Part shown: piece by piece, positions 10,241 through 61,482 of the stretch
Numbering within the stretch: the stretch's first letter is position 1
Layout of the letters: each line of letters opens with the position of its first letter
IMG/VR virus record: IMGVR_UViG_3300045988_168162
Coordinates: 1 to 64,000 of that record
Strand: one strand, 5' to 3'
Source of the DNA: a virus
Length of the DNA stretch: 64,000 nucleotides
The notes under the pieces: model-generated
Database searches by the model: none
What the model saw: the letters and a program-made list of their open reading frames with translations, nothing else
Told to the model about the DNA's origin: nothing
Program-made: the position numbers and the translations under genes

Positions 10241-10436
10241 AGAGTTCCTCGAAACTAACGATGGGCTTAGTCGCCGGAATACTGACAGGTCTTACATCGC
10301 CGTCTTTTGTGTAAACTGGAACCCCTGCAAGCGAAAAAATGTACTTATCCGCCACGCTCATGAGACCGCTTTCTGGTGCGGTGATGTAATATCCGTTTGT
10401 ACATGATGTAGTACTTTTATTAAATATATAGGTCAT
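10227..10436 (-). CDS. small protein with C-terminal PIVSFEELY tag
   Basis: Ends ..TKPIVSFEELYEHE. Confidence 0.5.
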   Translation of the reverse strand: MTYIFNKSTTSCTNGYYITAPESGLMSVADKYIFSLAGVPVYTKDGDVRPVSIPATKPIVSFEELYEHE

Positions 10437-13678: not shown

Positions 13679-13693
13679 GTGGCAGCACCTCCT

Positions 13694-18333: not shown

Positions 18334-18567
18334 CTATTTGAGACGCAGCGCATTGCGTACTGCGAAAAGTTCTTCTGGCGTAGTTGTGATGATGCGGATT
18401 TTACGATTGTAGTCGAGGCTCATCAGGCTGAGCAGACTTTTGGCATTGGCCTGACTGCCGTTGGAATCTATGACCTGAACGTCGATACATTCCTGAGCGA
18501 CGGCCTGCAGGCGCTGACACTGGGCGAAGTAATCGATCTTGGTGATAAAATCATACTGGCCGCTCAT
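18334..18567 (-). CDS. HPr/Crh-like domain protein lacking His15
   Basis: VIDSNGSQANAKSLLSLMSL aligns with the HPr Ser46 region (G-K-x-x-x-A-K-S-l). No His at the N-terminal phosphorylation position. Confidence 0.45.
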   Translation of the reverse strand: MSGQYDFITKIDYFAQCQRLQAVAQECIDVQVIDSNGSQANAKSLLSLMSLDYNRKIRIITTTPEELFAVRNALRLK

Positions 18568-20810
18568 ACAGGTTCACCTCTCTCTGCAAAGAACTGCTTG
18601 CGCAGGGTGATGATGTCATAGCCGCGCTGCTGTTTGTAGTTGCGGAAGTTTTCATCCTGGTTATATTTTTCGCGCAGGAAGCCATAGAAAGCATTCTCGA
18701 CTGCGTCCGTAAGCTGGGCGGTATTTTGGATATAGCCCCAGCGGCGGACAGAATCTGCCACACTGCGCATATGCTTCCATTTGGAGTAGTAATCCGTTTT
18801 GAGCTTGGTCATGAAACCTGCTGCATCCTCGAACACGAAGCCCTCGATATATTCATTCCCATATTTATAGCCGGGCATGCTGGCTTTCGTGTAGAAGTCC
18901 AGGAACTCCTGCCAGGTGTTGAGCGTAGCTACATGCTCCTTGACGGCCAGGAAGAAATCTGCATCATTCTCGGCCAGTTCCTTATAGGGCGTTTTACTGA
19001 ATTTGATCTGATTCTTGACCTTGTCCAAAAGAACCAGATGCTGCGAATTGTACTCGATAATATGCGGATCTTTTACCGGGTCAATGACCTCGTACAGATA
19101 GGTGCTGTCAGAGTCACGCAGGGTCTCTTTGACGCGATTCCAGTTATAGGAATCCTTTTCATACCAGGTCTCGGTAAAGATGTGACGGAAATTCTCGGCA
19201 TAGTCGCCGCCGATGGAACCCTTGGAGCAGAAACGCAGGTCATCGTTGTCAGCATCGTAGCTGAGCAGACCCAGATAGCCGTTCTCTTTACGGTAAACTT
19301 CCACCGGGAATTTCAAATTGGCCTTGAGGTAATCCAGGCTCGTTGTAGCGTGGATGCGCCGCAGCTCATCAATGCGGAAGAACTTTTCATAGCCGCGAGC
19401 TACGATCTTATCCTTGGCTGTATCGATAAACAGGCCGCGGGCAAGAGTTGTGCGCTCGTTCCAGTGCGCATGTTTGAACGCCTGACTGGTGAAGTTGAAG
19501 GCGGAGATATTGCCGAATTTGGATTCCCGCACGTCCGGGTCTTTGCGAAGAGCCTCGACCAGATCAGCGACCGGCGTATCGTGTTTGATCTCCAGCGGCT
19601 TTTCCTCTGGCTTGCGGAATACAGTATTGGGCGTTTCGTGCTGGATGGTATTGCCAAAAGCAAGCTCCACACCGCGCAGGCAGCCGCCAAATTCAATATG
19701 TCCCTCCAGCAGACAACACTTGGAATTATCCGGTAGGATGGGGTAATCCTGGATGTTGCGGTGACCGAAGATATGGATGGTATCGGAATCATGCCAGGAA
19801 TCGATAATGCCCGGCAGGTCCTCGTATTTGCCGACACCGTGGACCATCTGATGCGTAGGAATTTTGATAAGGGCCAGCGGGTCTTTTGTATCAAACTTGG
19901 CAATACCTCCATGGCAAACGAAATAGTCCTGACCTTGGAAATTGAAATAGGCACACTGATGAAGGCGCTGATACAGACGGCTGACGGCCTTTTTATCAAT
20001 ACCGGCTGCGTCCAGTTCTTTGCGGGTGAACTGCTCAAAATCGCGGCTGTTGGCGTTTTGTTCATGCGACCATTTATAGAGCCAGCGCTCGTGGTTGCCT
20101 TCCAGCAGGATCACATTGGGTTTGTCCATGATGGAGAGAAGAAACTGAACGACCTGAACATTTTCAAGGCCGCGGTCAATATAATCGCCGCAGAAGATGT
20201 ACATTTTATCGTCCTGGATACCGCCGATATCGGACAGATACTGTTGCAGACATGTATTGCAGCCGTGAATATCGCCGATTACATGAACTGCCTTGTACTG
20301 ATCAAGGTTCGATTTCTTATAGGAAATTTCTGCAATGGCGTTATCCCGTGTAAGGACCTTGATGCCTGCCGGGATCTTTTGCGTGGCAAAACGGGCGTAC
20401 ATTTTATCAATGACGAATTCCGGCACCTGTTTCATGGGCAGACGGCTTGCATTGCGGCGCTTACATTCCGCAATAGGCAGATTCGTCATATCCACCACGT
20501 AGATGCGGTAGCGGTACTGTTTGGCGAGTGCCTTGTAGCGATTCATCTCAGATGTTTTGGAATTGGTGGCGTCAATGACCGTGAAGCAGCCGTTCTGCAT
20601 ACGGGTTTCGAGCATCTTGAACAGCGTTTCCCAGACGAGTTTATCCTGCTTTTGGCTGATCGTCAGGCTGCCATTTGTTGCCTGGATAGGAGAGGAACAC
20701 TGCATGCGGATTTCATCGGCACTGAGGGCGTACTGCTCCAGCCCATAATTTTTTATGTAGGTGGACTTGCCGCAGCCGGGAGCGCCGCGGAAGAGAAGAA
20801 GCGTTCTCAT
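18564..20810 (-). CDS. polynucleotide kinase-phosphatase-ligase (Pnkp-type RNA repair enzyme)
   Basis: N-terminal P-loop kinase GAPGCGKST. Central calcineurin-type phosphoesterase GDIHGC .. GDYIDRG .. GNHE. C-terminal ligase-like domain with YRKENGYLG (K-x-x-G). Confidence 0.8.
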   Translation of the reverse strand: MRTLLLFRGAPGCGKSTYIKNYGLEQYALSADEIRMQCSSPIQATNGSLTISQKQDKLVWETLFKMLETRMQNGCFTVIDATNSKTSEMNRYKALAKQYRYRIYVVDMTNLPIAECKRRNASRLPMKQVPEFVIDKMYARFATQKIPAGIKVLTRDNAIAEISYKKSNLDQYKAVHVIGDIHGCNTCLQQYLSDIGGIQDDKMYIFCGDYIDRGLENVQVVQFLLSIMDKPNVILLEGNHERWLYKWSHEQNANSRDFEQFTRKELDAAGIDKKAVSRLYQRLHQCAYFNFQGQDYFVCHGGIAKFDTKDPLALIKIPTHQMVHGVGKYEDLPGIIDSWHDSDTIHIFGHRNIQDYPILPDNSKCCLLEGHIEFGGCLRGVELAFGNTIQHETPNTVFRKPEEKPLEIKHDTPVADLVEALRKDPDVRESKFGNISAFNFTSQAFKHAHWNERTTLARGLFIDTAKDKIVARGYEKFFRIDELRRIHATTSLDYLKANLKFPVEVYRKENGYLGLLSYDADNDDLRFCSKGSIGGDYAENFRHIFTETWYEKDSYNWNRVKETLRDSDSTYLYEVIDPVKDPHIIEYNSQHLVLLDKVKNQIKFSKTPYKELAENDADFFLAVKEHVATLNTWQEFLDFYTKASMPGYKYGNEYIEGFVFEDAAGFMTKLKTDYYSKWKHMRSVADSVRRWGYIQNTAQLTDAVENAFYGFLREKYNQDENFRNYKQQRGYDIITLRKQFFAERGEPV

Positions 20811-30075: not shown

Positions 30076-30164
30076 GATAAATCACTCCTTTAAAATTATT
30101 TTTTTTTGATTGGCGCACAAAAGCGAGCTGCCCATCCCTGAGCGAGCTTTTTAGGTTTGCATTT

Positions 30165-30241
30165 GGTAACAAATTCATTAACTCGGATATGACCTGAGTT
30201 CGTTTTGCCGGGCTTAGATGGTTCCCCACAAAGGGTGACAC
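30165..30241 (-). ncRNA. copy A of a conserved structured-RNA module (4 copies in the window)
   Basis: GGTAACAAATTC + hairpin with invariant CGGATATGACCTG core and covarying outer stem + second hairpin + GGGTGACAC. Lies about 80 nt from tRNA-Thr. Strand inferred, not proven. Confidence 0.5.
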
Positions 30242-30321: not shown

Positions 30322-30396
30322 TGGTGCTGGATGCAGGCTACGATCCCGCCTTGCCGGAGTACAAAACCGGGGTTCTACCAAATGAACTAATCCAGC
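30322..30396 (-). tRNA. tRNA-Thr (UGU)
   Basis: Cloverleaf read by eye: acceptor GCTGGAT/ATCCAGC, D arm GTTC/GAAC, anticodon loop TTTGTAC, encoded CCA. T-loop is ATCGTAG (non-canonical). Confidence 0.7.
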
Positions 30397-30403
30397 ATAT
30401 AAA

Positions 30404-30423
30404 CCTCAGATTTGCCGCTGAGG
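30404..30423 (-). terminator. intrinsic terminator after ORF 30438-31019
   Basis: CCTCAG-N8-CTGAGG hairpin followed in minus sense by TTTAT. Confidence 0.5.
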
Positions 30424-30437
30424 AGCCGGTATGTAAA

Positions 30438-31019
30438 TTAAGAGCGTTTATCGAGAACTTTCTCGTCCATGTAAGCATCGATCATTCGTTGCGTTTCTTC
30501 ATACGTGTGCTCACGGGCGTAACGGTTTACGTAGTTGATGCCGACACCCATGATCCTGGCAGCCTCGCGCCCAGTGACAGGAATCCTGTAATAATGTGTG
30601 GTGGATTTATGCTTTGAGTTGAGCCGCGTTGGAATCCAACGGCAATTCTCTGGGCAGTAATCCTTAGAAGAATCAATACGGTCAATGGACAGACCGGGTT
30701 TATACCCGTTTTGTAAAGACCAGAAAATAAATTCATCCGGGTGATAGAGCCATTCATCACAAATTCGGATGCCTTTTGCGCCATAGAATTTATAATCAGA
30801 TGCAGAAGTATCGTAACATCGGTCTTTCATTTTTAAGAAAGTTTTGGTAAGATGAGAATTTGAGACAGATGCTTTGGCAGCATGAATCGTAGGAAATCCA
30901 AAACGATCATAATGCGGGCATGTGTCATTTTTTAAATAATGAAAGTCACCAATAGACCGAATTGTTTTTGTGCCGCAGTAGACGCACTCGCCAACATAAA
31001 GTGTCCGATTGTTTTGCAC
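30438..31019 (-). CDS. homing-endonuclease-like protein (HNH/AP2-related family)
   Basis: MKDRCYD..YKFYGAKGIRICDEW .. F..W .. GYKPGLSIDRIDSSKDYCPENCRWIP, a pattern common in free-standing phage endonucleases. C-terminal HTH-like GREAARIMGVGINYV. Confidence 0.6.
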   Translation of the reverse strand: MQNNRTLYVGECVYCGTKTIRSIGDFHYLKNDTCPHYDRFGFPTIHAAKASVSNSHLTKTFLKMKDRCYDTSASDYKFYGAKGIRICDEWLYHPDEFIFWSLQNGYKPGLSIDRIDSSKDYCPENCRWIPTRLNSKHKSTTHYYRIPVTGREAARIMGVGINYVNRYAREHTYEETQRMIDAYMDEKVLDKRS

Positions 31020-31119
31020 AGATTTATCTATGATTTTGTAAGGACCACAGCGCTCGCCAATATGATTTGTTTTTATTGGAAATCACCTCTTTGAAAAGAA
31101 GACCGAATAGCATTTTAAG

Positions 31120-31193
31120 TGTTCCCGGTGGAAGTCGAATCCACAAATAACAGAACCTAAATCTGCCGCGTCTGCCAATTGAGCCACGGGAAC
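31120..31193 (-). tRNA. tRNA-like gene, anticodon UAG (Leu) but short variable arm and weak D stem
   Basis: Acceptor GTTCCCG/CGGGAAC, anticodon arm GCAGA-TTTAGGT-TCTGT, good T arm GTGGA-TTCGACT-TCCAC, A73. The D stem has only 2 clean pairs. Confidence 0.4.
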
Positions 31194-31469
31194 ATGGCAG
31201 GCTTCCCGCATAGATTATCGAATCACTATCGTCACCGTCATGACCTTCACCATACCATCTTTGCACCGACAACTAGCATTGGCACTAAGCATGTAGGAAG
31301 TGATTTGTTTTCAGCGGACATTGTCATTCTGGGTGAGGCTATCCCATGCGCTCTCACATCGTTCGGGCGCTACCCGACCTCTGGATAAACCAGGCTGGCT
31401 CGAACAGTCACAAACGGGGTCAAAGCCCGTTGCTCTTACCATTAGGGGCGAAAGCTCATTATAAATTGA

Positions 31470-33008
31470 TTATACGAATAAAATACCCGTATTTTTTGCA
31501 ACAAACCTGCACTTTCCTGCTGCAATTTTATTTGTATTTGTATCATAGTACGTTGTTGCTTTTCCATTTCGAGAAGATACAATCCCTTGCATTATATGAA
31601 TTTGCTTTTTGACAAGAAAAATACTTCCTGGATAATTACGGTTCGGATTCCTGTATGTTTGATGATGTTTTTCAACTTTTAGTTTGCAAACAGTATTTTG
31701 ATTTTTTTTACGAAATTCTTCCAAACTATCTACAACCTGTTCAACAGCCTTATGCCGATTAAATGCTACTTTTTTACCATTGAACGTATATATGCGACTC
31801 ATGTTTGCATTATTTAACGCCCTCCTATCGTGACGACGGAACTGTTTAAGTTCATACGGTGCACGACTGTTGATTGTACTATCACAAACATCGTTAGGCA
31901 AAACAGAACAGGCAATGCAATAGGCATCGAGCCAGTGGTCTTTGCTTATACCGTGTGCTGCACGGTAATCGTAGGTGCTTTTTCCCGTTGTTACGAAAAA
32001 GTGCTTTTGAAAAAGAGAACTTAATTCTTTCGTCAGTGCCGGAATGATTTGATTCAATACACTCAAAGCACCATATTTTTTATTGAGTCCTGTTTTCTTT
32101 TTGGCGAGTTTTTCTTGCCATGCAGTATCCTTATGTACGAGGTTATGATGCTTTGCGCATAAGCCAACGATATTGGCAATTGTGTTGCTGCCATTTTTAT
32201 GTTGCGGTACTACATGATGGTAATGTTCAATAGGTTTCTTACAAAACAAGCAGTGCTGTTCCTGCATTTCAGAAACAGCGCTCTCAAGATCCCCTTTTTG
32301 ATAGAGTGGACCCTGTTGGTACTGCCACTTCTTGATAACGGGATTATCAAGCTGCATGAAAGCAAATTTGTTAACCTCAAGCACAACATCACTGATGGGA
32401 AGGAATTTTTGAATTTTCTTAACCAAGTTGATGTGTGTTTTGAGCAACTGATTTGCAGTAGGCGTAAGCCAGCCTTCCGGTCTTGTGCGATTGTTGAACT
32501 TTGCTTCTTTGTTCTTGATGCCAATGCAAAGGACTTCTTTCTCGCAACCCGGAAGATGGCGCTTAATGACGCCAATTTCTTTTGCACGCTTGCTGACGCT
32601 GCCATTTTGGGCAGTGTCTTGCTTCACGCACTTTTTAGAAATAGTGCCATTGGCTTTTGCTCTCCGCTGACGACGGCATCGTCTACCATTGGTACGTCTT
32701 GCACGGCGGGAATCCTTACGCTTTTTCATCAATTTCGGAATTTCCTTGTTACGGGTTTCCAGATGTGCGGTAAAGACTGCCGTGCCGTCCGTTTTAACAA
32801 CAGCAACACCGATATTGGTTCTGCCGGGGTCGATGCCCAAGTAAAGCGGTTGCACCACATCGTCAGTTTCATACAACAGTTGAATGGTAAACGGCTTTGT
32901 TCTTACGGCTCGTGCTTTCTGCTCTTTAAGAAGATGGCGTACATGCCCACAGCGAGTCGTAGGCATTAAAGGTTTACCGTCTTTATTAAGCACATATACA
33001 GTGGACAT
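31470..33008 (-). CDS. iscB: IscB RNA-guided nuclease (512 aa)
   Basis: PLMP motif (DGKPLMPT), RuvC-I LGIDPGRTNIG, Arg-rich bridge helix RRARRTNGRRCRRQRR, HNH (CLFCKK..HHVVP..N..LCAKHHNLVH), RuvC-III DHWLDAYC. ATG 33008 follows AAAGGAGG. Confidence 0.85.
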   Translation of the reverse strand: MSTVYVLNKDGKPLMPTTRCGHVRHLLKEQKARAVRTKPFTIQLLYETDDVVQPLYLGIDPGRTNIGVAVVKTDGTAVFTAHLETRNKEIPKLMKKRKDSRRARRTNGRRCRRQRRAKANGTISKKCVKQDTAQNGSVSKRAKEIGVIKRHLPGCEKEVLCIGIKNKEAKFNNRTRPEGWLTPTANQLLKTHINLVKKIQKFLPISDVVLEVNKFAFMQLDNPVIKKWQYQQGPLYQKGDLESAVSEMQEQHCLFCKKPIEHYHHVVPQHKNGSNTIANIVGLCAKHHNLVHKDTAWQEKLAKKKTGLNKKYGALSVLNQIIPALTKELSSLFQKHFFVTTGKSTYDYRAAHGISKDHWLDAYCIACSVLPNDVCDSTINSRAPYELKQFRRHDRRALNNANMSRIYTFNGKKVAFNRHKAVEQVVDSLEEFRKKNQNTVCKLKVEKHHQTYRNPNRNYPGSIFLVKKQIHIMQGIVSSRNGKATTYYDTNTNKIAAGKCRFVAKNTGILFV

Positions 33009-33240
33009 ATACGCCACCTCCTTTACGATAAGTCTCCCCTGCCGAAGCGGGAGGTTATGTTTCCCTTGGCTAGGTAGCAGCTTAGTAGTGTTGCAAGCTG
33101 GGAAAACCTGCAAGTACATCTGCTATCTTGATGTACAAAAGTACATCTGCCTGTGATATTGAAGGAACTTAGTGGAATGATATTATTTTATTAAAGTTCT
33201 TCAATACCCTACGACGATGTGCCGTTTCGGAAACCCGGAT
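33009..33240 (-). ncRNA. candidate IscB omega-RNA (HEARO-like) scaffold
   Basis: 232-nt non-coding leader immediately 5' of iscB with several hairpins (GATGTAC-TTTT-GTACATC; TAGCAG..CTGCTA; CTCCCGC-TTCG-GCAGGGGAG). The position matches known IscB omega-RNAs. Boundaries unknown. Confidence 0.45.
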
Positions 33241-33317
33241 GGAACTGGAGGGCCTCGAACCCAAAATCATAATCCCAGTTATGAGCTGGACGCACTAACC
33301 ATTTGTGCTACAGTTCC
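33240..33317 (-). tRNA. tRNA-Met/Ile2-type (CAU)
   Basis: Acceptor GGAACTG/CAGTTCC, D arm GCAC/GTGC, anticodon loop CTCATAA. The T stem is weak (3 clean pairs) and the variable region is 9 nt. Confidence 0.55.
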
Positions 33318-33409
33318 TTATAAAATGGTTCCGTTTTTATCCTTAACGGTTTCCGTAACAGATAAGTAAGAATGAAACAAATATAGAAGGAGGGGGATAC
33401 CAGCCCCCA

Positions 33410-33485
33410 TGGTCGAATAGGCGAAACTCGAATTCGCGGCCTCTTGCTCCCAGGGCAAGCGTTCTACCAGCTGAACTACTACTCG
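33410..33485 (-). tRNA. tRNA-Pro (UGG)
   Basis: All four stems are clean (CGAGTAG/CTATTCG, GTTC/GAAC, CTTGC/GCAAG, GCGAA/TTCGC), encoded CCA. The anticodon loop CCTGGGA has C at position 33. Confidence 0.8.
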
Positions 33486-34030
33486 ATAATAAGAGAGAAC
33501 CTACCCCTGGATGACTCGAACGTCCGTTTTCAGCCTGCGCTGCTGTCCTTGCCTATTAGACGAAGCGGCAAGCTCTCTCTGAATTGGATTGAAAGTGTTT
33601 TCTTCTTGGCTCCCATTTCTATAGCCAGGATTCCGATAGTGGCGAACTATCCTAGGTGTTGGTTTATCTGCTAATGTTTACAGACTCTATAGCAGACCAC
33701 ATGCGAGTGGTGAAACCTTTGGCACCTGCCGGTTATCTGCAGGCACACGCTTTCAATCTTGGCGGGGCACTATCCCCAGCCTGTTGGTGGGACCTGGACC
33801 TTGCGGCCAGCCCCCGAGTTGTGCGAGACCTAGATCTGAGCGAGGCGAATCCTGCCTTTGCCGTTTGGCATCTCGCGGTAACGGAACCTGAATTCATGCG
33901 GATTTCACTGGGCGATATCTAATAAATAGACACCGAAACCGTTCATCATCCGAAGCAGCTGGATTCCGTTTTGCCCTGATTCCGGCTTTCGGCAGGTGAT
34001 CGGCCTGCTATAGAACCAGGGCAATGGTGC
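33486..34030 (-). ncRNA. long structured non-coding region between tRNA-Pro and RNA module B
   Basis: No credible ORF. Many local and long-range helices, e.g. 33971-33978/34017-34024 (8 bp), a GNRA-capped hairpin at 33794-33810, and a tRNA T-arm-like GGACG-TTCGAGT-CATCC at 33509-33525. Confidence 0.4.
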
Positions 34031-34319
34031 GGAATGAATCTTGACCAGACAGCCCGCGATTGGTATGTATAATGCAATGGGTGTGGCGCATGGTCTGGGT
34101 GACAAATTTGAACACTCGGATATGACCTGAGTGTGGCGCGTGTTGCAAGGGAATTCTCGTGCCTGGAGGCAGCTGCACATTTCGATTATACTGACAAAGT
34201 AGTGGCATAATCCACTGGACAACCTGGGCCGTGACTGTCATTAACCCTTGGCAGAAACCAGGTATTACTTTCGCGAGAATCCTGTGGCGCTGCTGTGCGC
34301 TGTTGGTAAGATTCATTCC
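34031..34319 (-). ncRNA. copy B of the conserved structured-RNA module, closed by a 12-bp helix
   Basis: GGAATGAATCTT (34031-34042) pairs with AAGATTCATTCC (34308-34319). The conserved module GGGTGACAAATTTGAACACTCGGATATGACCTGAGTG lies at 34097-34133. Abuts tRNA-Gly. Confidence 0.5.
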
Positions 34320-34321
34320 GT

Positions 34322-34396
34322 TGGAGCGGCTGAGGGGCGTCGAACCCCCGTCCCCAGCTTGGAAGGCTGGTATACTGGCCGTTGTACGACAGCCGC
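34322..34396 (-). tRNA. tRNA-Gly (UCC)
   Basis: Acceptor GCGGCTG/CAGCCGC, anticodon arm CCAGC-CTTCCAA-GCTGG, T arm GGGGG-TTCGACG-CCCCT, encoded CCA. Confidence 0.85.
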
Positions 34397-38325: not shown

Positions 38326-39792
38326 TTATAATAGGGGAGCATTGTGCTCCTGCATAAAAAGTTCTGCGTTTCGGCGCAGGAGACAGGGATCATTTTGGAA
38401 CTTGCCATCTACCACGCATTGCAGAAGATGGTTAAAGCATTGGCCGAACAAAGGGCCAGGACGATAGCCCATCTCCATAAGATCATGACCATTGATGTGC
38501 AGGTCCTGGATGGAGAGCTTGCGCCCCTCGAAAATTGCGATAGCGAGATACAGGTATGTGATTTCGGCCTTGCGCATAGCGTTCATAGTGCCAAACTTGG
38601 TATAATCGACACCGTGGGCGTAGAGATCAGCAAAACGGACAGCCATAAGCAGCTGGGCATTGACAGGACCAAGAGCGGCCAGCAGACGATTGGCACAGCG
38701 GACGGTGGGTTCAAATTGGCGGTCGTGGTTTTTGATGAGCAGGACGATCCGTTCCCGTTCCGCGTTAGAAAACTTGAGGCGGCGAAGAATGTCATCGGCA
38801 AGTTCGGCACTTTTTTCAGCATGGCCGTAAAAGTGGCCGGTGCCGCCATCATCGACCGTATAGCATACTGGTTTGGCAATATCATGCAAAAGCATCGTTA
38901 TGCAGAGCTCGAACCAGTGAGCGTGGATAGCAGCGGTAAACTCGGGGAGTTTTTGGGTGACGCTCTTCAGTTCCACGACAGACTTTAGAATATGATCTTG
39001 CACGGTGTAGATATGATAGGGACTGTGCTGCTGAAAATCACGACTGAGATAAAGTTCCGGGATAATTTCTTCCAGTACGTCGATATAATCGAAAAGAAGC
39101 AGACTGAAATCATCGTGCTCATAGCTGGAGGTGAAGATTTTGCGGAGTTCGGACTGTACACGTTCGGCGGAAAGACCGACAAGCATCTGAACATTCGCAT
39201 GAATTGCTGCTTCGGTTTGTACATCGATCGTCAAATCATAGCTGACGGCAAAGCGCAGGGCACGTAAGATACGCAGAGGGTCCTCCTGGAAGCGTTTGTT
39301 AGGGTCACCAACGCATTTGATGAAATTGCTGCACATATCCGCATAGCCTTTAAAGGGGTCGACGATCCCAATCGTGTAAGTGCCTTCTTGGGATGCATCA
39401 TCATTCGGTAAAATTCTGCCAGCGATGGCATTCATGGTGAAATCACGGCGGGCAAGATCTTCTGTGATATCATCGACAAACTCGACCGTATCAGGATGGC
39501 GGTGGTCTTTGTAAATGCCGTCTTTACGCATGGTTGTGACTTCGTACTGGCCGTCCGGCATGATAACTGTAACAGTGCCATGCTTGATGCCGGTATCAAT
39601 GGTAGGAGAGAAGAGAGATTTTACCGTGGTTGGGTCGGCCTGGGTGACAACATCATAATCGTGCGGTGTTTTATCGAATAGAATGTCCCGCATACAGCCA
39701 CCAACAAGGTAGGTTTTATAACCGGCACCTTCTAACTGGAGGACAAGGGTAACAAGATCATGCGGCAGGGGGATACCTTGTAGTACAGGCAT
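38326..39792 (-). CDS. cca: tRNA nucleotidyltransferase (CCA-adding enzyme) with HD-like region
   Basis: Head-domain motif LVGGCMRDILFDKTPHDYDV, RRDFTMNA, and a later LLHDIAKP HD-type motif. Confidence 0.8.
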   Translation of the reverse strand: MPVLQGIPLPHDLVTLVLQLEGAGYKTYLVGGCMRDILFDKTPHDYDVVTQADPTTVKSLFSPTIDTGIKHGTVTVIMPDGQYEVTTMRKDGIYKDHRHPDTVEFVDDITEDLARRDFTMNAIAGRILPNDDASQEGTYTIGIVDPFKGYADMCSNFIKCVGDPNKRFQEDPLRILRALRFAVSYDLTIDVQTEAAIHANVQMLVGLSAERVQSELRKIFTSSYEHDDFSLLLFDYIDVLEEIIPELYLSRDFQQHSPYHIYTVQDHILKSVVELKSVTQKLPEFTAAIHAHWFELCITMLLHDIAKPVCYTVDDGGTGHFYGHAEKSAELADDILRRLKFSNAERERIVLLIKNHDRQFEPTVRCANRLLAALGPVNAQLLMAVRFADLYAHGVDYTKFGTMNAMRKAEITYLYLAIAIFEGRKLSIQDLHINGHDLMEMGYRPGPLFGQCFNHLLQCVVDGKFQNDPCLLRRNAELFMQEHNAPLL

Positions 39793-40798
39793 GGTAGTTT
39801 ACCTCCATAACGAGTTCTTCTACCCGTTTATAATCCGAGGTTTTGGGGAGCATGGTGTTGGCTTTGTCATATTGCAGGCGCTTTTCATACTGATCGATGA
39901 GATCGAAAAACTCCTGGTAGTAAGTGCCGTCCGGCTTTTGGAACTTACCGGCGCGGATCTCCAAGAGGAAATCGCGGTCGTTTTCGCGGTAGGTGTTGAT
40001 CTCGCCTTTTTCAAGAATATCAAAGCACATGAGATAAAGCCAGACCAGGTGCATGGCGTGCTTATTCAGATGCAGATCATCCTTTTTGCTGTTGCGCTTT
40101 CCGAGCTTGGCGTACTGGCCGATGACCGTGCCGAGATCAGAATTCATTTCCTTAAAGCTGCGGAGTGGATAATGTTTAAGGTCGCAGTCAATGAAGATTT
40201 CTGTCTCCATGCCCTCTGTTACGCCTTTGTCAATATATAGGTGAACGGAATCACCAGGGATATCGGCGTGCTGCAAACGGAAGTTTTCAAAGACAGATTT
40301 GCAGGTGCCTAGAATATGGCGCTCTTTTTCATCCTGGTGATAGTGGTCATGTGCCAGGGCATTTTGCAGGCGGCGCAGCTGCTGATTGGCATAACCGCCA
40401 AAAGCGTGGACGGCCGTTTGAGAGAGAAATAGTTTTTTATTTTCAATAAGCATCTGGCCCGCCGGAGTGATGTAAAAATACTGGTCCGGTTTATTGCCGA
40501 GAAGTTCGATCGTGTTGGGATTACAAGAGAGCAGTAGACTGACGAGCTTATTGAAACCGAAGATCGTAGTGTCGGTGCCAGTATCAACACGCTGCTCAAA
40601 ATTAGAGAAACCGAGAATATCCTGCGGGGAGTTCATGGCACAGCCGCGGACATCCACATCCGAACCTTCGACATTGGTGCCATAGGCGTGACTGCCGCCG
40701 AGCGTTAGGAACATAATGTTTTCGCCCAGGTGCGGATCGGTGCGCAAGAAATCATAAGCAGGGGACAAGATCAGGTCATCGAATTCGTTTTGTGTCAT
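39758..40798 (-). CDS. pol-beta-fold nucleotidyltransferase (RlaP-like)
   Basis: GGSHAYGTNVEGSDVDVRG is a minimal G-S .. DxD nucleotidyltransferase motif. Confidence 0.6.
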   Translation of the reverse strand: MTQNEFDDLILSPAYDFLRTDPHLGENIMFLTLGGSHAYGTNVEGSDVDVRGCAMNSPQDILGFSNFEQRVDTGTDTTIFGFNKLVSLLLSCNPNTIELLGNKPDQYFYITPAGQMLIENKKLFLSQTAVHAFGGYANQQLRRLQNALAHDHYHQDEKERHILGTCKSVFENFRLQHADIPGDSVHLYIDKGVTEGMETEIFIDCDLKHYPLRSFKEMNSDLGTVIGQYAKLGKRNSKKDDLHLNKHAMHLVWLYLMCFDILEKGEINTYRENDRDFLLEIRAGKFQKPDGTYYQEFFDLIDQYEKRLQYDKANTMLPKTSDYKRVEELVMEVNYHACTTRYPPAA

Positions 40799-55845: not shown

Positions 55846-56190
55846 TGTGTGATGTAAGCTGATAAGGTGGCTGCCTGGACCAGGAGGTGGTCCCAACTCG
55901 TTATTCAGAAGCTGCTGCTCAATTTTAGGAAGTCCTGGTACGATTTTCTGGGTACGAAGCACTGTTGATTGGACGTGTAAGTGAGCTAATCGCTATGGAC
56001 TCTGACGCTTTTGCCAGTCGTTAGTTGGCAGTAAACTCTGAATCTTCGCTGAAGAATCACTAGGATCGCGATGGCCATCGGCGACTCGCCGATCGTGGTG
56101 GGTGGACTGGGTAACAAATTCATACTCTCGGATATGACCTGAGAGTTTTTGCCTTGAACTACAAAGCAAAAGTAAACCTTACATAACACA
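55846..56190 (-). ncRNA. copy C of the structured-RNA element (345 nt) downstream of the RT gene
   Basis: Closed by a 13-bp inverted repeat with one mismatch (56178-56190 vs 55846-55858). Conserved module at 56109-56146. Same 5' layout as copy D. Confidence 0.55.
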
Positions 56191-56208
56191 GTTTATAGAA
56201 TGTAAAAA

Positions 56209-56382
56209 CATTTCTGCGGCATTACCGAGCGCTCCAGATGGGGGTCTGAAGCGCCGGCAAGAAAGGAAGAAAAAATGAACAAGGGCTGCATGGAATCACC
56301 ACAAACCATGCGCCCGGTGGCCGGACGAACAACCGAAAGAAAGGAAGAAACGGCTGAAGCGCCCGGTAACACCGCAGAAACG
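56209..56382 (-). other. structured spacer between the RT stop and RNA copy C
   Basis: About 24-nt imperfect inverted repeat (56209-56232 vs 56359-56382). It encloses two direct copies each of AAGAAAGGAAGAAA (56259, 56337) and CTGAAGCGCC (56246, 56354). Confidence 0.45.
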
Positions 56383-56398
56383 GCGGGGGAAAACTGAA

Positions 56399-57589
56399 TC
56401 AAGCTGCTTTGGGCTTGAGATCGTCAGAGATACAGGTGAGAAGATCGGCACCATATCTGGCGTTGTACTTTTGGATGACACCGGCAATGGTGGCGGGTTC
56501 TACACTAAGGTAGTAGCTGATATTGCCGCGGAACTTTTGGAGATCCTCTTCGTCCCATTTTTTGCCGTTGCGGCGGTCTTTGAAATAGGTTTCGATGGTA
56601 GCTTTAAGGATTTTGTGGTTTCGATAACCAACGGTAATATCGCCATCCTTATTGAGCATCAGACCGAGCATCCAGTTACGACCGGCGCGGGTGCCGAAGT
56701 GGGTCTTTTCGGTATTCAAGGTAAAGGGAGCATCGAGTTCATGAAGCATGGCGATCAGTTCCCGCTCGACCTTGCGGTAGTTGAAGAAGACCCGGCAGGA
56801 GATATGAATATCATCGGCATAGCGGGTGTAACAGATGCGGTCTGTGATGGGCGTGCCATCTGGGTTGACTTTGCCGCTTTGGAACTGGTTGAGCAGGCGG
56901 GCAAACTTATGGTCGAAGGGAATCATCATGACATTGGTGATGAAAGGGGAGAACGGGGTGCCCTGTGGCAGGCCGTTATTGAGAAACGCCAGGCTTAAAG
57001 CGCGGCGAAGCTCCCTGCGGCCGGTGGGGTCTGCCAGGATCAGGTTGAAGGGATAGATCTCTTCCATCTGTTTGAAGACAAAGTGCGGTGTGGTGGATGG
57101 GAAAAAGCCGTGGAAATCATAATGGCAGAAGTACCAGCTGCGGAACCGCTGATGCTTGATAACGGCATCCTTGGTGGAGCGGCCATTGACATAGGCAAAA
57201 GCGCAGGTGTGGTGGTCGGCAAACATCCAGCCGGACATCATATCCTTGAGCTGAGCCAATGCCTTTTTGAGTTCCGGGTGCGGGGCATCAATGGGACGCA
57301 TCTTGCCGCCGGTCTTTTTCGGGATCTCGAAATGATCGTAGAGTTCCCATTTGTTGGGGTAATCGATCAGATCCTTATAGCAGGTATTGAACATCTTGAG
57401 CTGGCTGATCATGGCGTCCAGGCAAGTGATTTTCATAATGCGCTCAGGAACTTTGTCGCATACAACGGTGCGGGTGGAGCCGTGACCGCCGGAACGTAAG
57501 GAATCCAGCGGAATATCGACACCGAGCATAAGTTCCTCGAACGTGATTTGACGAACGGTTTCGGGGGTATTGTAAGTTATGTATACCAT
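56399..57589 (-). CDS. reverse transcriptase, retron/Abi-like type (396 aa)
   Basis: FEIPKKTGGKMRPIDAP (RT1-2), NGLPQGTPFSPFITN (RT4), YTRYADDIHIS (YADD box in a retron-like context). Start at MVYITYN (ATG 57589). The longer track ORF runs into structured non-coding RNA. Confidence 0.85.
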   Translation of the reverse strand: MVYITYNTPETVRQITFEELMLGVDIPLDSLRSGGHGSTRTVVCDKVPERIMKITCLDAMISQLKMFNTCYKDLIDYPNKWELYDHFEIPKKTGGKMRPIDAPHPELKKALAQLKDMMSGWMFADHHTCAFAYVNGRSTKDAVIKHQRFRSWYFCHYDFHGFFPSTTPHFVFKQMEEIYPFNLILADPTGRRELRRALSLAFLNNGLPQGTPFSPFITNVMMIPFDHKFARLLNQFQSGKVNPDGTPITDRICYTRYADDIHISCRVFFNYRKVERELIAMLHELDAPFTLNTEKTHFGTRAGRNWMLGLMLNKDGDITVGYRNHKILKATIETYFKDRRNGKKWDEEDLQKFRGNISYYLSVEPATIAGVIQKYNARYGADLLTCISDDLKPKAA

Positions 57590-57607
57590 AGTGGTGTACC
57601 TCGATTG

Positions 57608-57944
57608 TGTTTGTGATCTTGAAGGAATGATGCTGATCTTGCGAAGCTGATCAGCTTCCTGGATTAGCTCCATACAGTGGTGGAATTGGCTTAAAACTCC
57701 AATCAGACAACTGACTGATGTCCAATCTGCGGCTGCCAAGTCTATTACATGACCAATCGACATCGATTGCCCGCTAAGTTAGCTTAAAATGCCCTTGATG
57801 TGAGCGGCGGAACTCGGCGATTCTTGTGGCACCCCCAGATGCGCCTGGCGCGTGCCTGCCCGGTCTGGGTAACAAATTCGTACTCTCGGATATGACCTGA
57901 GAGTCGTTGCGATTTACAAAATGCAACGGTAAACATCACAAACA
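57608..57944 (-). ncRNA. copy D of the structured-RNA element (337 nt) immediately upstream of the RT (retron msr-msd-like position)
   Basis: Closed by a perfect 10-bp inverted repeat (57935-57944 vs 57608-57617) that ends 19 nt before the RT ATG. Conserved module at 57867-57904. TATAAT box at about 57968. Confidence 0.55.
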
Positions 57945-57993: not shown

Positions 57994-58677
57994 TTACATG
58001 GCCGTGATAGCTCCTTCCGTGTCGAGATTGAAAGGCGCAACCAGGATCAAATCCTTGATCTTGCCATCCGTGACAAACTTTTGGAAGTTGATAACGGTCA
58101 TGGTGGCAGCCATGCGAACCGTGGGCGCTACACCAAGGACCTCGCCACAGGCGGAACGGGGCACCTCAGCGGTCGCTTCCTCGTGGGTGAAGTTCATACT
58201 GTCGAGCAGTGCTTTCTTGGCCTGCGGGTCACGCCAGTCGGCTGCATAAAGCTGGGCATCAAACAATGCCGTGCGGACATCAAACATCGCCTTGATATTG
58301 GCGTTGTACTGATTGCGCTTGACAATGTCGCGCCGGATCGCAATATCATCCACGGCCAGGAACACATAGCCTGCCAGCGGCTCACCATGCCAGCCATCGG
58401 GTTTGACCTTGACGGTTTCATTACAGGTCAGATTGATATTACCAAGAATATCTCGCAAGGCATCGACCTTTTTCATGCCGACATGGTCATCGAAGAACAT
58501 CTGGTTGACGAGGTTTTTCTCCTCGACCTTGTCCATATCCCAAAGGGTGAACTTGGTGAGACCGTAGCGGGCCAGCAGCTCGGCGATGGTAGAACCGACA
58601 GAACCGCAGCCAATAATGTGAATGGGAGCGGTGATCTTGGCGGGGTCGAAAACCTCGCGGCTCTTATTTAAATTCAT
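57994..58677 (-). CDS. ThiF/MoeB/E1-like adenylyltransferase (227 aa)
   Basis: Rossmann IIGCGSVGS plus DMDKVEEKNLVNQ. Start at MNLNKSRE after AGGAGGTCCCCG. Confidence 0.75.
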   Translation of the reverse strand: MNLNKSREVFDPAKITAPIHIIGCGSVGSTIAELLARYGLTKFTLWDMDKVEEKNLVNQMFFDDHVGMKKVDALRDILGNINLTCNETVKVKPDGWHGEPLAGYVFLAVDDIAIRRDIVKRNQYNANIKAMFDVRTALFDAQLYAADWRDPQAKKALLDSMNFTHEEATAEVPRSACGEVLGVAPTVRMAATMTVINFQKFVTDGKIKDLILVAPFNLDTEGAITAM

Positions 58678-59296
58678 CGGGGACCTCCTGACCGTAGGTG
58701 TACCAATCGTACTGCTTATAGTGGTTGTACTGGTTGAAATAGATGGGCGGCTGAACGACCGGCAGCGATTCGACCTTGACCATGGTTTTGACTTCATCCA
58801 GGAAGGACGGGTCAAAAGTATCGTAGGTAAGAAGAACTTCGTCCTGTTCACGAATCGTGCCATGATCGTAGATGTGGGCTGTGTAGTAGAGATCCTTGTT
58901 CCAGATCATGAAGATATAGAACTGGTTATCCGGGATGTGGCGTTCCTCCTGGCTTTGGATATCCGTACCGGAGGGGTGCGTGTCCATATAGACGTGGCTG
59001 TGACCGTGGTAGTGCAGGTCATCAAAGTTGGGATGCTCAAAGTACCAGCGGCCATATTCCTCCTGATCGACCACCACCGTAGCAGCGGTGACCGTTTGCG
59101 GATAGACCGTGATATCATAGACCTCCCAGCCATCCTGGATGGGGCGGGTAAGACCATGCCAGCCGATTTCGGTGTTATACTCGTTCAGCAGAGCGAGCTG
59201 TTTGTTCCAGGCATTGGCCGTGAAGTGGATATGAATGGGTTTCTTTGCGGGTGCCTTGACGGCGGGGGCCTTTTCATTCGGGCTCGTTTTGGACAT
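58664..59296 (-). CDS. JAB/MPN (JAMM) metalloprotease-like protein
   Basis: EIGWHG .. HSHVYMDTHPSGTD matches E..HxH-x7-S-xx-D. Overlaps the E1-like gene by 14 nt. Confidence 0.75.
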   Translation of the reverse strand: MSKTSPNEKAPAVKAPAKKPIHIHFTANAWNKQLALLNEYNTEIGWHGLTRPIQDGWEVYDITVYPQTVTAATVVVDQEEYGRWYFEHPNFDDLHYHGHSHVYMDTHPSGTDIQSQEERHIPDNQFYIFMIWNKDLYYTAHIYDHGTIREQDEVLLTYDTFDPSFLDEVKTMVKVESLPVVQPPIYFNQYNHYKQYDWYTYGQEVPDEFK

Positions 59297-59299
59297 GGC

Positions 59300-60673
59300 T
59301 TACGCCTCCTTTCCGTTCATTTCATCACAGACGATCTGCATGGCTTCCTTGAATGTGATATCGGTGCCATCTTGCGTGCGGATGACCTTGCCACTGCCGA
59401 GAACCAGCTGCTGCGTAACACGACCCATGGCCCAAGTCTCAGACAGGGACACATTGGATGCGCTTTGCTGCGTGATAGCCAGGGCAGCGATATAATCATG
59501 GTTGCGCTCGGCATCTGCAAGATCGCCTGCATAGCCGCCCAGGCAGGTGGCAAAAGCGATATGCGGGTTATTGATATAGTCCGCAGCAATAGGCTCCATG
59601 GGATCATCGGCTTCCACAGCGTGGACAGCGGCATCTCTGTTGATGATGTAAGTGGCGGCCATCTTGATCGTGAACCGATGATCAACAAAGACAGCGCGGT
59701 AGAACGCGGTCATCTGATCGTTATCATACGGGTTATCGATTTCATGGGAGCCGCGGCCGATGCTGGAATAACCATCGAGAACGTCAGGGTAGTTCAGCAC
59801 ATAAGAATCGACCATGTCCTCATCATAACAGGAGAGGGTGGTGAGCACCGTGTACTGGATATAACCACTGCCGATGCCGATATGATCGATACGGAATCCG
59901 CCGCTGCGCAGGTAATCATAGATTTCCTGGCGAAGCTGATTCGTGTCGGTTTTGCGAAGGTAGGCAATCTTTGCGTTGTACTCTGCAATGAGACGAAGAT
60001 GATCGGAGATGCGGCGCTGGTAGCTCTTGATCTCTTGTTCGGCTTCCTCGATATTGCGGGAGGCGGAGCGGATCTGATCAGCCTGTGCGTTGACGGTGAT
60101 CTCCTGGGCGGCAGAACGATACTCGATCATATCGTAAGCGTACTTAGCGATAAAGGAAGCCGTGGCGTCCCAGAAATCTTTGCGCGATGCTGCGTTATCT
60201 TTTTGACTGATCTTGTAGACCAGCTGAAGCAGCGCGTATTCATCGGGCTGAAGCTTCTGTTCACCCTCGAACAGCCAGGGCAGGAGCATGGGGATGGCAC
60301 TAATCACACGAAGCCAGATCGCATGGCGTGGACGTACCGCCTGGTCAACATTCACGACGGCCCTGCGCTTATCGGGCAGGATAAAGACCTTGCTGTGCTC
60401 CGGGGCGATATAGTTTTCAAGCCGGGTCACACTGGTAAGGTTACTGGTAACAGGGAACGGAACCGTCCTGAGATAAAGGAACTCCGCATCCGTATCACCG
60501 TTATGGCCGTTTTCAAGATGAAGCGTTTCCGTTCTGGGGGCAACCACACACATCCAGACGGCCTGGAGGACGAGCAGATCATCACCGCTGACGGCGTAAT
60601 ACTGGTCACTGGTGAACCGCCCCTGCATGGAGCTTTCAAACGCTTTCGAGAGGATTCTTTCGTTGATTTCCAA
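59300..60673 (-). CDS. hypothetical protein of the E1/JAB cassette (457 aa)
   Basis: Central coiled coil. C-terminal NNPHIAFATCLGG loosely recalls an E2 HPN..C active-site loop (speculative). Confidence 0.5.
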   Translation of the reverse strand: MEINERILSKAFESSMQGRFTSDQYYAVSGDDLLVLQAVWMCVVAPRTETLHLENGHNGDTDAEFLYLRTVPFPVTSNLTSVTRLENYIAPEHSKVFILPDKRRAVVNVDQAVRPRHAIWLRVISAIPMLLPWLFEGEQKLQPDEYALLQLVYKISQKDNAASRKDFWDATASFIAKYAYDMIEYRSAAQEITVNAQADQIRSASRNIEEAEQEIKSYQRRISDHLRLIAEYNAKIAYLRKTDTNQLRQEIYDYLRSGGFRIDHIGIGSGYIQYTVLTTLSCYDEDMVDSYVLNYPDVLDGYSSIGRGSHEIDNPYDNDQMTAFYRAVFVDHRFTIKMAATYIINRDAAVHAVEADDPMEPIAADYINNPHIAFATCLGGYAGDLADAERNHDYIAALAITQQSASNVSLSETWAMGRVTQQLVLGSGKVIRTQDGTDITFKEAMQIVCDEMNGKEA

Positions 60674-60705
60674 AACGGAAACACTCCTTTCTTTAAGCAG
60701 CGGAC

Positions 60706-60978
60706 TTAGCCGCGGCAGGCGTTATCCTGCTTGGGGATGTTGAGCATGTAGAAGCTGGTGGCGGTGTTGATCTTCTCGAAATTATCGGCGAACCAGCGGA
60801 TGGGCTTGTCCAGGTTTTCCTCGCCCAGAGCGATGCCGTTGAAATTCGTCTGGCCGACATGGTAGTCAACGCCGAACTGATCCAGCAGCTGACGGGGCGT
60901 GGTGGTGTCCACAGAGATGGGGGCGGACTCGTGACGATCGAAAGAAGTGCCGACTTTAACCTTGATGATGCTTTCCAT
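60706..60978 (-). CDS. small protein ending in Gly (90 aa), possible beta-grasp/ubiquitin-like partner
   Basis: Start at MESIIKVKVG after AAAGGAGA. Terminal residues ..NACRG. Ubl size and position in the cassette. Fold not verifiable here. Confidence 0.4.
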   Translation of the reverse strand: MESIIKVKVGTSFDRHESAPISVDTTTPRQLLDQFGVDYHVGQTNFNGIALGEENLDKPIRWFADNFEKINTATSFYMLNIPKQDNACRG

Positions 60979-61062
60979 AAAACTTGTCTCCTTTGAAATA
61001 TACATTTATTTTGTGATTTTATACAGTGTTTGTATGCGGGCTTTGGATGTAAAAGAGGGGGA

Positions 61063-61482
61063 TCAGCCCTCTGCGGTGGTGTCCTCGGCGTTGGCTTCAC
61101 CGGTCAGTTCCCGGATGAAGGCGGCCTTGCGATCCTTTTCATTCTGGACAGCGGTGGTGGCGGTGGCCTCGATCTCGTCCAGCTTGGCCTTGGCAGCGCC
61201 GACCTTATCAAAGATCTCGTTCAGCTGCTCATCTGCGGGCTTATTGGTGTCCAGCGTGTAGGTCAGGACGGCCTTGCCATCGCGGGTCTTGTTGGCGAAA
61301 ACGATGCCGTACTGGCTGATGCTGCCCATGGTGCCGCCGGTTTTGACAACGAACTGGACGTCGCCGTCCTTATCCTTGATGGCCAGGGCGTCGGGATTCT
61401 GCTTCTCCAGCAGTTTGATGTCGTCCAGCGACAGGGTGGAGATGAGGTCGAAAGTGGTTGCGTTCAGGGTGATCTTAGACAT
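61063..61482 (-). CDS. hypothetical protein (139 aa), first gene of the E1/JAB cassette
   Basis: ORF with Ala/Lys/Glu-rich C-terminal half. Confidence 0.5.
   Translation of the reverse strand: MSKITLNATTFDLISTLSLDDIKLLEKQNPDALAIKDKDGDVQFVVKTGGTMGSISQYGIVFANKTRDGKAVLTYTLDTNKPADEQLNEIFDKVGAAKAKLDEIEATATTAVQNEKDRKAAFIRELTGEANAEDTTAEG

Follow-up and report, generated by a model that had tools for sequence, protein, structure and literature searches.

Known retrons comprise one reverse transcriptase (RT), one non-coding RNA (ncRNA) and one effector, and are carried by bacteria or their prophages. In retron types I-A and II-A (Ec78/Eco7, Ec83, St85 and Ec73; RT clade 2), the ncRNA lies directly upstream of the RT gene on the same strand, is enclosed by the a1/a2 repeats, has a G after the 5' arm and contains short msr hairpins, while the effector is an ATPase-HNH or a nucleoside deoxyribosyltransferase. 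Here we describe a locus with the same ncRNA layout in a 64,000-nt stretch of viral DNA (positions 1 to 64,000 of IMG/VR record IMGVR_UViG_3300045988_168162; hereafter, the window), in which an RT gene is flanked on both sides by paralogous structured RNAs. Types I-A and II-A give the best hidden Markov model (HMM) and PDB matches to this RT. Unlike those retrons, the locus has an RT that is at most 30% identical to theirs, several ncRNAs for one RT, a ~240-nt hypervariable template region without a conserved stem-loop, and ubiquitin-like (Ubl), JAB and E1 candidates as neighbours. We consider it likely that the locus is a phage-borne retron variant with more than one template RNA, which retains the multi-template RT system proposed in the initial annotation of this sequence.

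Other described systems share parts of this arrangement. According to PMC7736814, the classical E. coli retrons are prophage-associated with the exception of Retron-Eco5. Of the 13 effector types catalogued there, those that we read include none of the ThiF/E1, JAB, Ubl-like and 457-aa (X457) proteins encoded beside our RT. Mestre et al. 2020 (PMC7736814) also describe stand-alone (msr-msd)-RT cassettes, in clade 11 and in the Ec107 branch of clade 2, that have a retron RT and an ncRNA but none of the catalogued effectors; these are single-ncRNA, chromosomal elements of Gammaproteobacteria and Actinobacteria, whereas the present system has a conserved gene cluster and belongs to phages of gut Clostridia. 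One RT with several ncRNAs has been engineered in the retron arrays called multitrons (Gonzalez-Delgado et al. 2023, as cited in PMC10849725), whose ncRNAs have a common msr recognition part and differing templates, as here, and which are synthetic. Weinberg et al. 2017 stated that they had seen no RT gene flanked on either side by copies of an RT-associated RNA motif (PMC5737381), and we found no report of a natural multi-ncRNA phage retron, or of an RT with E1/JAB, in a literature search that covered subscription journals thinly. The diversity-generating retroelements (DGRs) of phages also combine a phage RT with a short, sharply bounded hypervariable tract; unlike DGRs, the system described here has no template repeat/variable repeat (TR/VR) pair within the window, no adenine-specific pattern, a non-coding variable tract and a retron-like RT. 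By its RT and RNA layout, the system lies inside the retron concept, and by its copy number, cassettes, partners and viral carrier it lies outside every catalogued type.

The RT gene (56399..57589, on the minus strand like all genes of the region) encodes a 396-aa protein that matches Pfam RVT_1 (E 4e-16) and contains the FEIPKKTGGKMRPI, LPQGTPFSP and YTRYADD boxes. The retron-type assignment made from these boxes was upheld by PADLOC, NCBIfam and PDB matches. The top PADLOC models were both retron models (RT_II-A, 153 bits; RT_I-A, 121 bits), and among the NCBIfam models retron_St85_RT scored 172.3 bits versus 64 for group_II_RT_mat (cut-off 300), 28.8 for Drt2 (cut-off 390) and 16.1 for Drt3a (cut-off 200). 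The closest solved structures are retron RTs (22et, Ec83, Ec78, St85 family), which align over the fingers, palm and thumb, and each of the six top PDB matches is either a retron RT or a retron-family polymerase. Aligning the protein to retron 22et also revealed a ~75-aa N-terminal extension. The homologues listed are mostly 379-411 aa long, like the 396-aa reading, with a few of ~440-450 aa.

In GTDB, searched with one genome per species, the relatives form two groups: sequences at 35-46% identity in metagenome-assembled genomes (MAGs) of Clostridia (Oscillospiraceae, Christensenellaceae, Lachnospiraceae and others), and ordinary, mainly proteobacterial retron-type RTs at no more than 30% identity. 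At least 534 relatives are present in IMG/VR, where their contigs measure 70-150 kb. In the phage GenBank collection, a DNA search gave no match and a protein search gave a single relative (MT835544, 44%). Judged from profile scores and structure matches, the RT appears to form a diverged lineage of its own within the retron RT family and outside every named retron type, because it misses the retron_St85_RT cut-off and RTs outside its family are at most 30% identical.

Three further observations concern the RT gene in relatives, which we denote by locus numbers. In L014, whose RT is 65% identical to that of the window, the retron-like RT is followed 1.8 kb downstream by a second RT gene (13000-14346, plus strand; 448 aa, Pfam RVT_1). 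In two relatives from metagenome assemblies, an RNase H gene (PF00075; L198 7144-7593 and L199 7126-7575, plus strand) overlaps the RT stop codon, which fits a system producing RNA-DNA hybrids. In the phages whose RT is 62% identical (L017-L046; hereafter, the 62% clade), 67% of the pairwise nucleotide differences in the RT gene (10001-11191) are C<->T on the coding strand, an unusually one-sided spectrum.

The upstream msr-msd-like ncRNA of the window is 337 nt long (57608..57944, minus strand) and scores 93.8 bits with a covariance model of the 5' module. Its 5' arm a1 (TGTTTGTGAT, 57944-57935) and 3' arm a2 (ATCACAAACA, 57617-57608) form a perfect 10-bp inverted repeat, and G57934 directly follows the 5' arm, as described in the initial annotation. 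UUUAC comes after this G, followed by hairpin 1 (57905-57928), hairpin 2 (57882-57904) containing CAGGUCAUAUCCG, a tail (57862-57881; ACGAAUUUGUUACCCAGACC) and a variable cassette (57618-57861) that extends to a2. The end of a2 lies 18 nt before the RT ATG, rather than the 19 nt first given. The description of this element as free of open reading frames (ORFs) is loose, since it carries mechanical TTG ORFs of 50-53 aa and, at 57763, an ATG in frame with the RT start. A perfect 16-nt palindrome (GAAGCTGATCAGCTTC) occupies 57643-57658 inside the variable cassette.

The downstream paralogous ncRNA (55846..56190, minus strand; 345 nt, 84.5 bits) has the same layout. Its arms TGTGTTATGTAAG and CTTACATCACACA (a1, 56178-56190; a2, 55846-55858) form a 13-bp repeat with one mismatch, which agrees with the earlier description, and the 5' arm is followed by G56177 and UUUAC; the module spans 56104-56187 and the variable cassette 55859-56103. 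Compared with the upstream element, hairpin 1 differs, hairpin 2 is identical and the tail is the same. A 208-nt spacer separates this ncRNA from the RT stop codon (56191-56398, minus strand); it is pyrimidine-rich and repetitive (TTTCTTCCTTTCTTTC, TTTTTTCTTCCTTTCTT), and the hairpin at 56311-56327 resembles a terminator.

Both elements fold better than shuffled sequences (z -4.0 upstream and -3.4 downstream). We also performed an anchored a1/a2 test, in which the 5' arm has to end at the conserved G and only Watson-Crick pairs with at most one mismatch are allowed. Among 1000 shuffles, 4 equalled the real repeat of the upstream element and 1 that of the downstream element, and for most orthologous and paralogous copies the number was 0-6. 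The earlier view of the flanking RNAs as paralogous, structured and msr-msd-like is supported. In an unanchored inverted-repeat search allowing G-U pairs, the 10-bp repeat alone was not significant, helices of this length being frequent by chance. What carries the case for a1/a2 is that the repeat keeps a fixed position and recurs in relatives.

The sequence CAGGTCATATCCG occurs exactly four times in the 64 kb, always on the minus strand (57887, 56129, 34117 and 30184), and the covariance model of the 5' module likewise gives exactly four significant matches, all on the minus strand. The two additional copies are partial. One, beside tRNA-Gly (34030..34320, minus strand), contains hairpin 2 and the tail at 34092-34135 (35.0 bits, E 2e-6, 34092-34198) and is closed by a 13-bp helix of its own (34308-34320 paired with 34030-34042, from the minimum free energy fold and self-BLAST), which begins two bases past the 3' end of the tRNA (34322-34396). 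The other, beside tRNA-Thr (30159..30234, minus strand; hairpin 2 and tail, 31.8 bits, E 1e-5), is located 88 nt past the tRNA and ~85 nt ahead of the next ORF, and is conserved in L005 and L007, both close relatives. With the RT-flanking elements, these two copies have no more in common than hairpin 2 and the tail; G-TTTAC, hairpin 1 and the a1/a2 geometry are missing. The statement that the same module occurs beside these two tRNA genes holds for hairpin 2 and the tail, and the proposal of one RT with four cognate-looking RNAs holds in so far as there are several RNAs per RT, two of the four being partial.

None of the elements matched Rfam at gathering thresholds or at E<=10; only the tRNAs and a DUF3800-XI RNA were found elsewhere in the window. 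The latter (33765-33814, minus strand; 44.3 bits, gathering score 37.8) lies in the same ~800-nt ORF-poor stretch after tRNA-Gly as the module copy. Scans for sigma-70 promoters and terminators around the locus gave no more than expected by chance.

The RT relatives of at least 39% identity amount to more than 100 loci from gut phages and Clostridia MAGs. Wherever a family locus that we read leaves an intergenic gap in front of the RT, the ncRNA is found in it, over 40-98% RT identity (at 98, 70, 65, 62, 46, 45 and 40-45%), with a size of ~280-345 nt. In the common upstream layout, a1 and the G are followed after 3-5 nt by hairpin 1, hairpin 2 and the tail; 150-250 nt of variable sequence then lead to a2, located just ahead of the ribosome-binding site. 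Full copies share the terminal a1/a2 duplex, the unpaired G 3' of a1, two covarying hairpins and a single-stranded tail (GAAUUUGUUACC in the window clade). The a1 arms differ among relatives (TGTTTGTGAT, TTTTGTGAA, TTTGTTTGAT, GTTTCTGTAAT, ATCGTGAT, AACTTGTAAT, AGGTTGTAAC, TACTGTAAT and CTAATAAA) and a2 covaries with them, as in the arm pairs TTTTGTGAA/TTCACAAAA, TTTTTTTGTTTGAT/ATCAAACAAAAAAA, GTTTCTGTAAT/ATTACAGAAAC, AACTTGTAAT/ATTACAAGTT, AGGTTGTAAC/GTTACAACCT and CTAATAAA/TTTATTAG.

We measured the covariation of the hairpins in a covariance-model alignment of 38 module copies from 15 sources (36 distinct rows counted), which replaced, with a hand-specified structure, an alignment of the mixed clades by MAFFT and RNAalifold that mis-registered hairpin 2 owing to unequal loop lengths. 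In this alignment, which is fitted to the model and hence biased toward the structure, 92.5% of the cells pair versus 73% in shuffled alignments (none of 500 as high) and 30-49% with slid partners, and 10 of the 14 hairpin base pairs show compensatory change. The inverted repeats and the module that were initially described in one genome are thus conserved and covarying in related loci. The hairpin-2 loop of the window clade reads GGUCAUAUCC, that of the 62% clade GGUYAUAUCC, that of the L047 clade CCGGUAUUACCG and that of the clade at 45% RT identity GGYCAAGCC. Together with the tail, this loop varies between RT clades and is identical in all paralogues of one genome, as expected if the RT recognises the hairpin-2 loop and tail.

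The number of ncRNAs per RT differs between lineages. The window contains four module copies by the covariance model, and contigs with the window-type module mostly contain two to four. In the 62% clade, each 21-kb locus has three copies: upstream of the RT, immediately downstream, and ~3 kb further. L013 (70%) and L014 (65%) have one copy on either side of the RT, and downstream copies are also present in L015 and L016. In L047-L051 (46%), one upstream copy is accompanied by three tandem downstream copies; in L047, which we read in sequence, every copy of the tandem is bounded by a separate a1/a2 pair (14-18, 10-13 and 12 bp) with a following G, and a tRNA-Gln marks the end of the array. The 45% clade has the upstream copy alone, with one copy per contig in 46 of 47 contigs, located at the RT wherever checked. 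In about half of the family, the upstream ncRNA is the sole copy detected, so one upstream ncRNA was probably the ancestral state, and judging from these sequences several ncRNAs per RT appear to be a lineage trait. The tRNA adjacency suggested by the window recurs in the window clade, L014 and L047, and is not general: the extra copies in the 62% clade have no tRNA nearby.

The template-like middles of the RT-flanking RNAs are hypervariable, a feature that was absent from the initial annotation and is the most unusual one of the locus. Among 27 phages of the 62% clade, the JAB, ThiF and RT genes have a nucleotide diversity of 0.02-0.07 (mean pairwise identity 96-97% for ThiF and RT) and the upstream msr module 0.017 (98%). 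The corresponding values are 0.34-0.41 (62.5%) for the middle of the upstream RNA and 0.26-0.33 (70.6%) for the middle of the RT-downstream RNA, roughly a tenfold excess of variability over the neighbouring genes. The borders of the cassettes are sharp, at the end of the tail and ~25 nt before a2, and the middles are T-poor. Among the pairs listed, cassette identities are mostly either >=92% or ~55-60%, indicating discrete alleles, of which the upstream cassette has ~14 among 30 phages. The upstream and downstream cassettes assort independently (Spearman 0.03).

Phages that are otherwise nearly identical, with 2-5 differences in 2821 coding nt, nevertheless differ by 1.4-5% and 1.5-25% in the two cassettes, a 13- to 70-fold enrichment of point differences in both. 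For example, the pair L044/L046 shows 3/2821 coding differences against 3/218 and 3/202 in the cassettes, and the pair L037/L046 shows 2/2821 against 11/218 and 49/200, while the modules of the three closest phage pairs show 0/172 differences. The window clade shows the same pattern at 98% RT identity: the upstream allele is common to the window and L016, with another allele in L015, and the downstream allele is common to L015 and L016 and differs in the window. The third, distal copy of the 62% clade (type B), which has a 12-bp closing helix without a G after it, is not variable (25 of 25 in one cluster). No cassette sharing between slots or clades was seen at >=80% identity. The cassettes of the window gave nothing beyond 16-nt chance or palindrome matches to the rest of the 64 kb and no DGR-like TR/VR pair, the substitution spectrum has no adenine-specific or other clear bias, and no stop-free reading frame is conserved across the cassettes, which do not align. 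The cassettes change by point differences and whole-allele replacement far faster than the RT, the module and the neighbouring genes.

Immediately upstream of the RNA and RT lie five co-directional genes (57994-61482, minus strand) encoding an E1/ThiF protein, a JAB candidate, X457, a Ubl-like candidate and a 139-aa protein. Four of these form a conserved cluster, in contrast to the earlier impression that there is no obvious effector gene. The E1-like adenylating enzyme (57994..58677, minus strand; 227 aa, Pfam ThiF 1.4e-20) matches PADLOC E1-E2 models of the cyclic oligonucleotide-based anti-phage signalling system (CBASS) down to 5e-17, over the nucleotide-binding part only, and UBA5, TcdA and MccB in PDB. 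The JAB/JAMM-type peptidase candidate (58664..59296, minus strand; 210 aa) contains the motif HSHVYMDTHPSGTD (HxHx7SxxD) and matches PADLOC JAB (E 2.6e-4), with no match in Pfam. X457 (59300..60673, minus strand; 457 aa) has an AlphaFold2 (AF2) model with a predicted local distance difference test (pLDDT) score of 79, in which a 60-residue helix (182-241) separates two alpha/beta domains, the C-terminal one containing an invariant NNPH and Cys377; in a Foldseek search with this model, its sole BFVD match is an uncharacterised gut Siphoviridae protein.

The beta-grasp Ubl candidate (60706..60978, minus strand; 90 aa, AF2 pLDDT 75) ends in ...KQDNA+CRG. In a Foldseek search against PDB, its 12 best matches and most of the top 50 are ubiquitin-like, and a bacterial E1-E2-Ubl complex is among the matches. 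Its homologues end in ...DNA*, ...DNAR or ...DGGRQ; a K-x-D-N-A or D-G-G is conserved at this terminus and in some homologues is extended by a few residues, which gives the appearance of a Ubl that is trimmed by JAB and activated by E1. We counted the linkage of these genes by tblastn in 109 RT-family loci with at least 4.5 kb upstream and in 36 comparison loci whose RTs are at most 30% identical. Of the 109 family loci, 107 contain ThiF, 107 JAB, 100 X457 and 73 the Ubl-like gene, and none of the four was found by tblastn in the 36 distant retron RT loci. The linkage is kept despite rearrangement (ThiF lies downstream of the RT in L208, and L204 has a 2-kb insertion) and amid very different outer neighbourhoods (L196-L199). 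As in Cap2/Cap3 of type II CBASS and in Bil/Bub, an E1-type enzyme is combined with JAB and a small beta-grasp candidate with a short removable C-terminal extension; unlike in those systems, no E2 domain is recognised, a CD-NTase is absent, and the genes belong to a phage and have an RT-ncRNA pair as their partner. By analogy with Cap2/Cap3 and Bil, the Ubl/X457/JAB/E1 cluster is a candidate effector or regulatory arm.

The window covers the replication and nucleotide-metabolism arm of a large phage, with NrdD, DNA polymerase, DnaB, an HNH endonuclease and six tRNAs (30322-34396), and an Ant/Bro-type anti-repressor gene lies just downstream of the RT locus. The attribution to a phage genome is supported by these genes, a Pnkp-RNA ligase gene and the IMG/VR relatives. 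A temperate lifestyle is plausible; an integrase gene lies nearby in the relative L013. We also noticed an RNA-repair kit on the minus strand, composed of a Pnkp-RNA ligase fusion (phrog_8238, 1e-216) and two nucleotidyltransferases, one of which matches tRNA nucleotidyltransferase families (18564-20810, 38326-39792 and 39758-40798). Together with the six tRNAs, this kit suggests that the phage meets tRNA-targeting host defences. The 549-aa HNH endonuclease ORF (31470-33119, minus strand) between tRNA-Gln and tRNA-Met possibly encodes a homing endonuclease.

For the phage-borne retron variant that we favour, the following mechanism can be proposed from characterised retrons. The 5' module (msr) would be bound by the RT, the a1/a2 duplex would present the G whose 2'-OH primes complementary DNA (cDNA) synthesis, and the variable 3' two-thirds of the RNA would be the template (msd), so that one RT would produce two or more different multicopy single-stranded DNAs (msDNAs) per phage. 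The Ubl-like/X457/JAB/E1 cluster would act as the effector or regulatory arm of a conflict system on a probably temperate phage, serving the exclusion of rival phages or the countering of host defence, with the cassettes under arms-race selection. By analogy, such a role in rival exclusion or counter-defence is the most likely one, and the anti-defence device suggested by the first reading is only one of several possible roles. In an extension of this idea that we regard as improbable, the cassettes would be specificity modules: each ncRNA would yield one msDNA, diversified by RT-dependent write-back or rapid allele exchange, and the msDNA repertoire would direct or gate Ubl conjugation against rival phages or host defence factors.

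Several observations weigh against a retron variant with this effector arm. The RT score for retron_St85_RT falls short of the curated cut-off of 235 bits, and of the NAxxH and VTG motifs, which are typical of retron RTs, both are altered in the alignment to retron 22et (DNALAH to DAVIKH, HVTGVTLN to WMLGLMLN). The ~240-nt template-like region exceeds the length of classical msd regions; RNAalifold gave no consensus structure and no long msd stem-loop for the middle 240 nt of 28 orthologues, and single cassette middles are not more stably folded than shuffled sequences (z -2.5 to +0.3). The G is proposed as the priming site purely by analogy, and the type B and type C copies of the 62% clade, as well as the two tRNA-adjacent copies of the window, have a closing helix without a G after it or are devoid of hairpin 1; such copies may never be primed. 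As for the cluster, the Foldseek matches of the Ubl candidate are weak (E 5e-3 to 8e-2), and X457 matched nothing in Pfam (whole or in halves), PHROGs, PADLOC, PDB sequences or, with its AF2 model, PDB structures searched by Foldseek. No E2-like enzyme was recognised in the cluster by Pfam, PDB fold or hhalign of X457, where the comparison with human E2 UBE2D2 gave a probability of 0.2%. L212 has the ncRNA and RT without the cluster, and the conservation of the neighbourhood may be due in part to common descent of related phages, not to function.

The hypervariability itself could be explained by a self-diversifying retroelement, in which low-fidelity copying by the RT is followed by recombination of the cDNA into its own template locus, as in a DGR whose template is also its target. 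The point enrichment in both cassettes (13- to 70-fold) with sharp borders at the module tail and near a2 is what such an element would leave, and so is the invariability of the third copy, which has no G after its closing helix (25 of 25 in one cluster). We nevertheless think this explanation unlikely, because the substitutions have no adenine-specific or other clear bias, no recombinase is linked to the locus and no TR/VR pair is present in the window, and because the two-moded identities among the pairs listed (>=92% or ~55-60%) fit allele swapping via the conserved flanks at least equally well. A DGR proper was rejected on the missing TR/VR pair in the 64-kb window and on differences that are not A-specific. 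A group II intron was also rejected: there is no Rfam intron match at E<=10, the maturase model reaches 64 of 300 bits, and the flanks are paralogues and not intron halves. Likewise, the defence-associated RTs (DRTs) of unknown group (UG) class 2 were rejected on their scores (Drt2 28.8, cut-off 390; Drt3a 16.1, cut-off 200). The claim that the locus matches no retron, DGR, group II or DRT arrangement therefore stands for the last three, and gives way to a diverged lineage in the case of retrons; no Rfam family fits either.

Two other explanations appear to us very doubtful, more so than self-diversification. The RNAs could be RT-independent small RNAs of the phage, or leader or processing elements that act, for instance, in transcript processing beside tRNAs, with the RT merely lying inside their cluster. 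The copies adjoining tRNA genes in the window, L014 and L047 would fit this, as would the two window copies and the type B copies without the G/a1 geometry and the DUF3800-XI RNA in the same ORF-poor stretch. Such independence is difficult to reconcile with an element directly upstream of the RT in every examined locus with a gap, with a module whose sequence follows the RT clade in every paralogue of a given genome, or with the single copy of the 45% clade, which lies at the RT wherever checked (46 of 47 contigs with one copy); moreover, a module without an RT has not been demonstrated on any contig. The RT might instead make a product other than branched msDNA, for example a concatemeric or protein-primed cDNA as in DRT2 and DRT9. 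Here, the long, unstructured template-like region unlike the classical msd hairpin, the altered VTG and NAxxH motifs and the 75-aa N-terminal extension have to be set against the very low scores of the DRT models (Drt2 28.8 bits vs 390, Drt3a 16 bits), an a1/a2 duplex followed by an invariant G, which is the priming geometry of retrons, and the lack of a stop-free frame conserved across the cassettes.

As a phage-borne retron variant with several template RNAs, this widespread gut-phage lineage, with more than 500 IMG/VR relatives, would depart from known retrons in three ways. If the reading is true, natural arrays of template RNAs for one RT exist in the very design that has been engineered as multitrons, and compact RTs that naturally accept several templates would be of interest for retron genome editing. 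The template region would be a localised hypervariable cassette, changing on timescales that leave the rest of the locus unchanged. The coupling to ubiquitin-like conjugation would link two defence themes that were not previously connected, and if the cassettes did turn out to be specificity modules, the system would be a virus-encoded, nucleic-acid-programmed protein-tagging system. In these phages, the family would offer testable handles on two questions, namely what purpose the sequence of msDNA serves and what causes it to vary.

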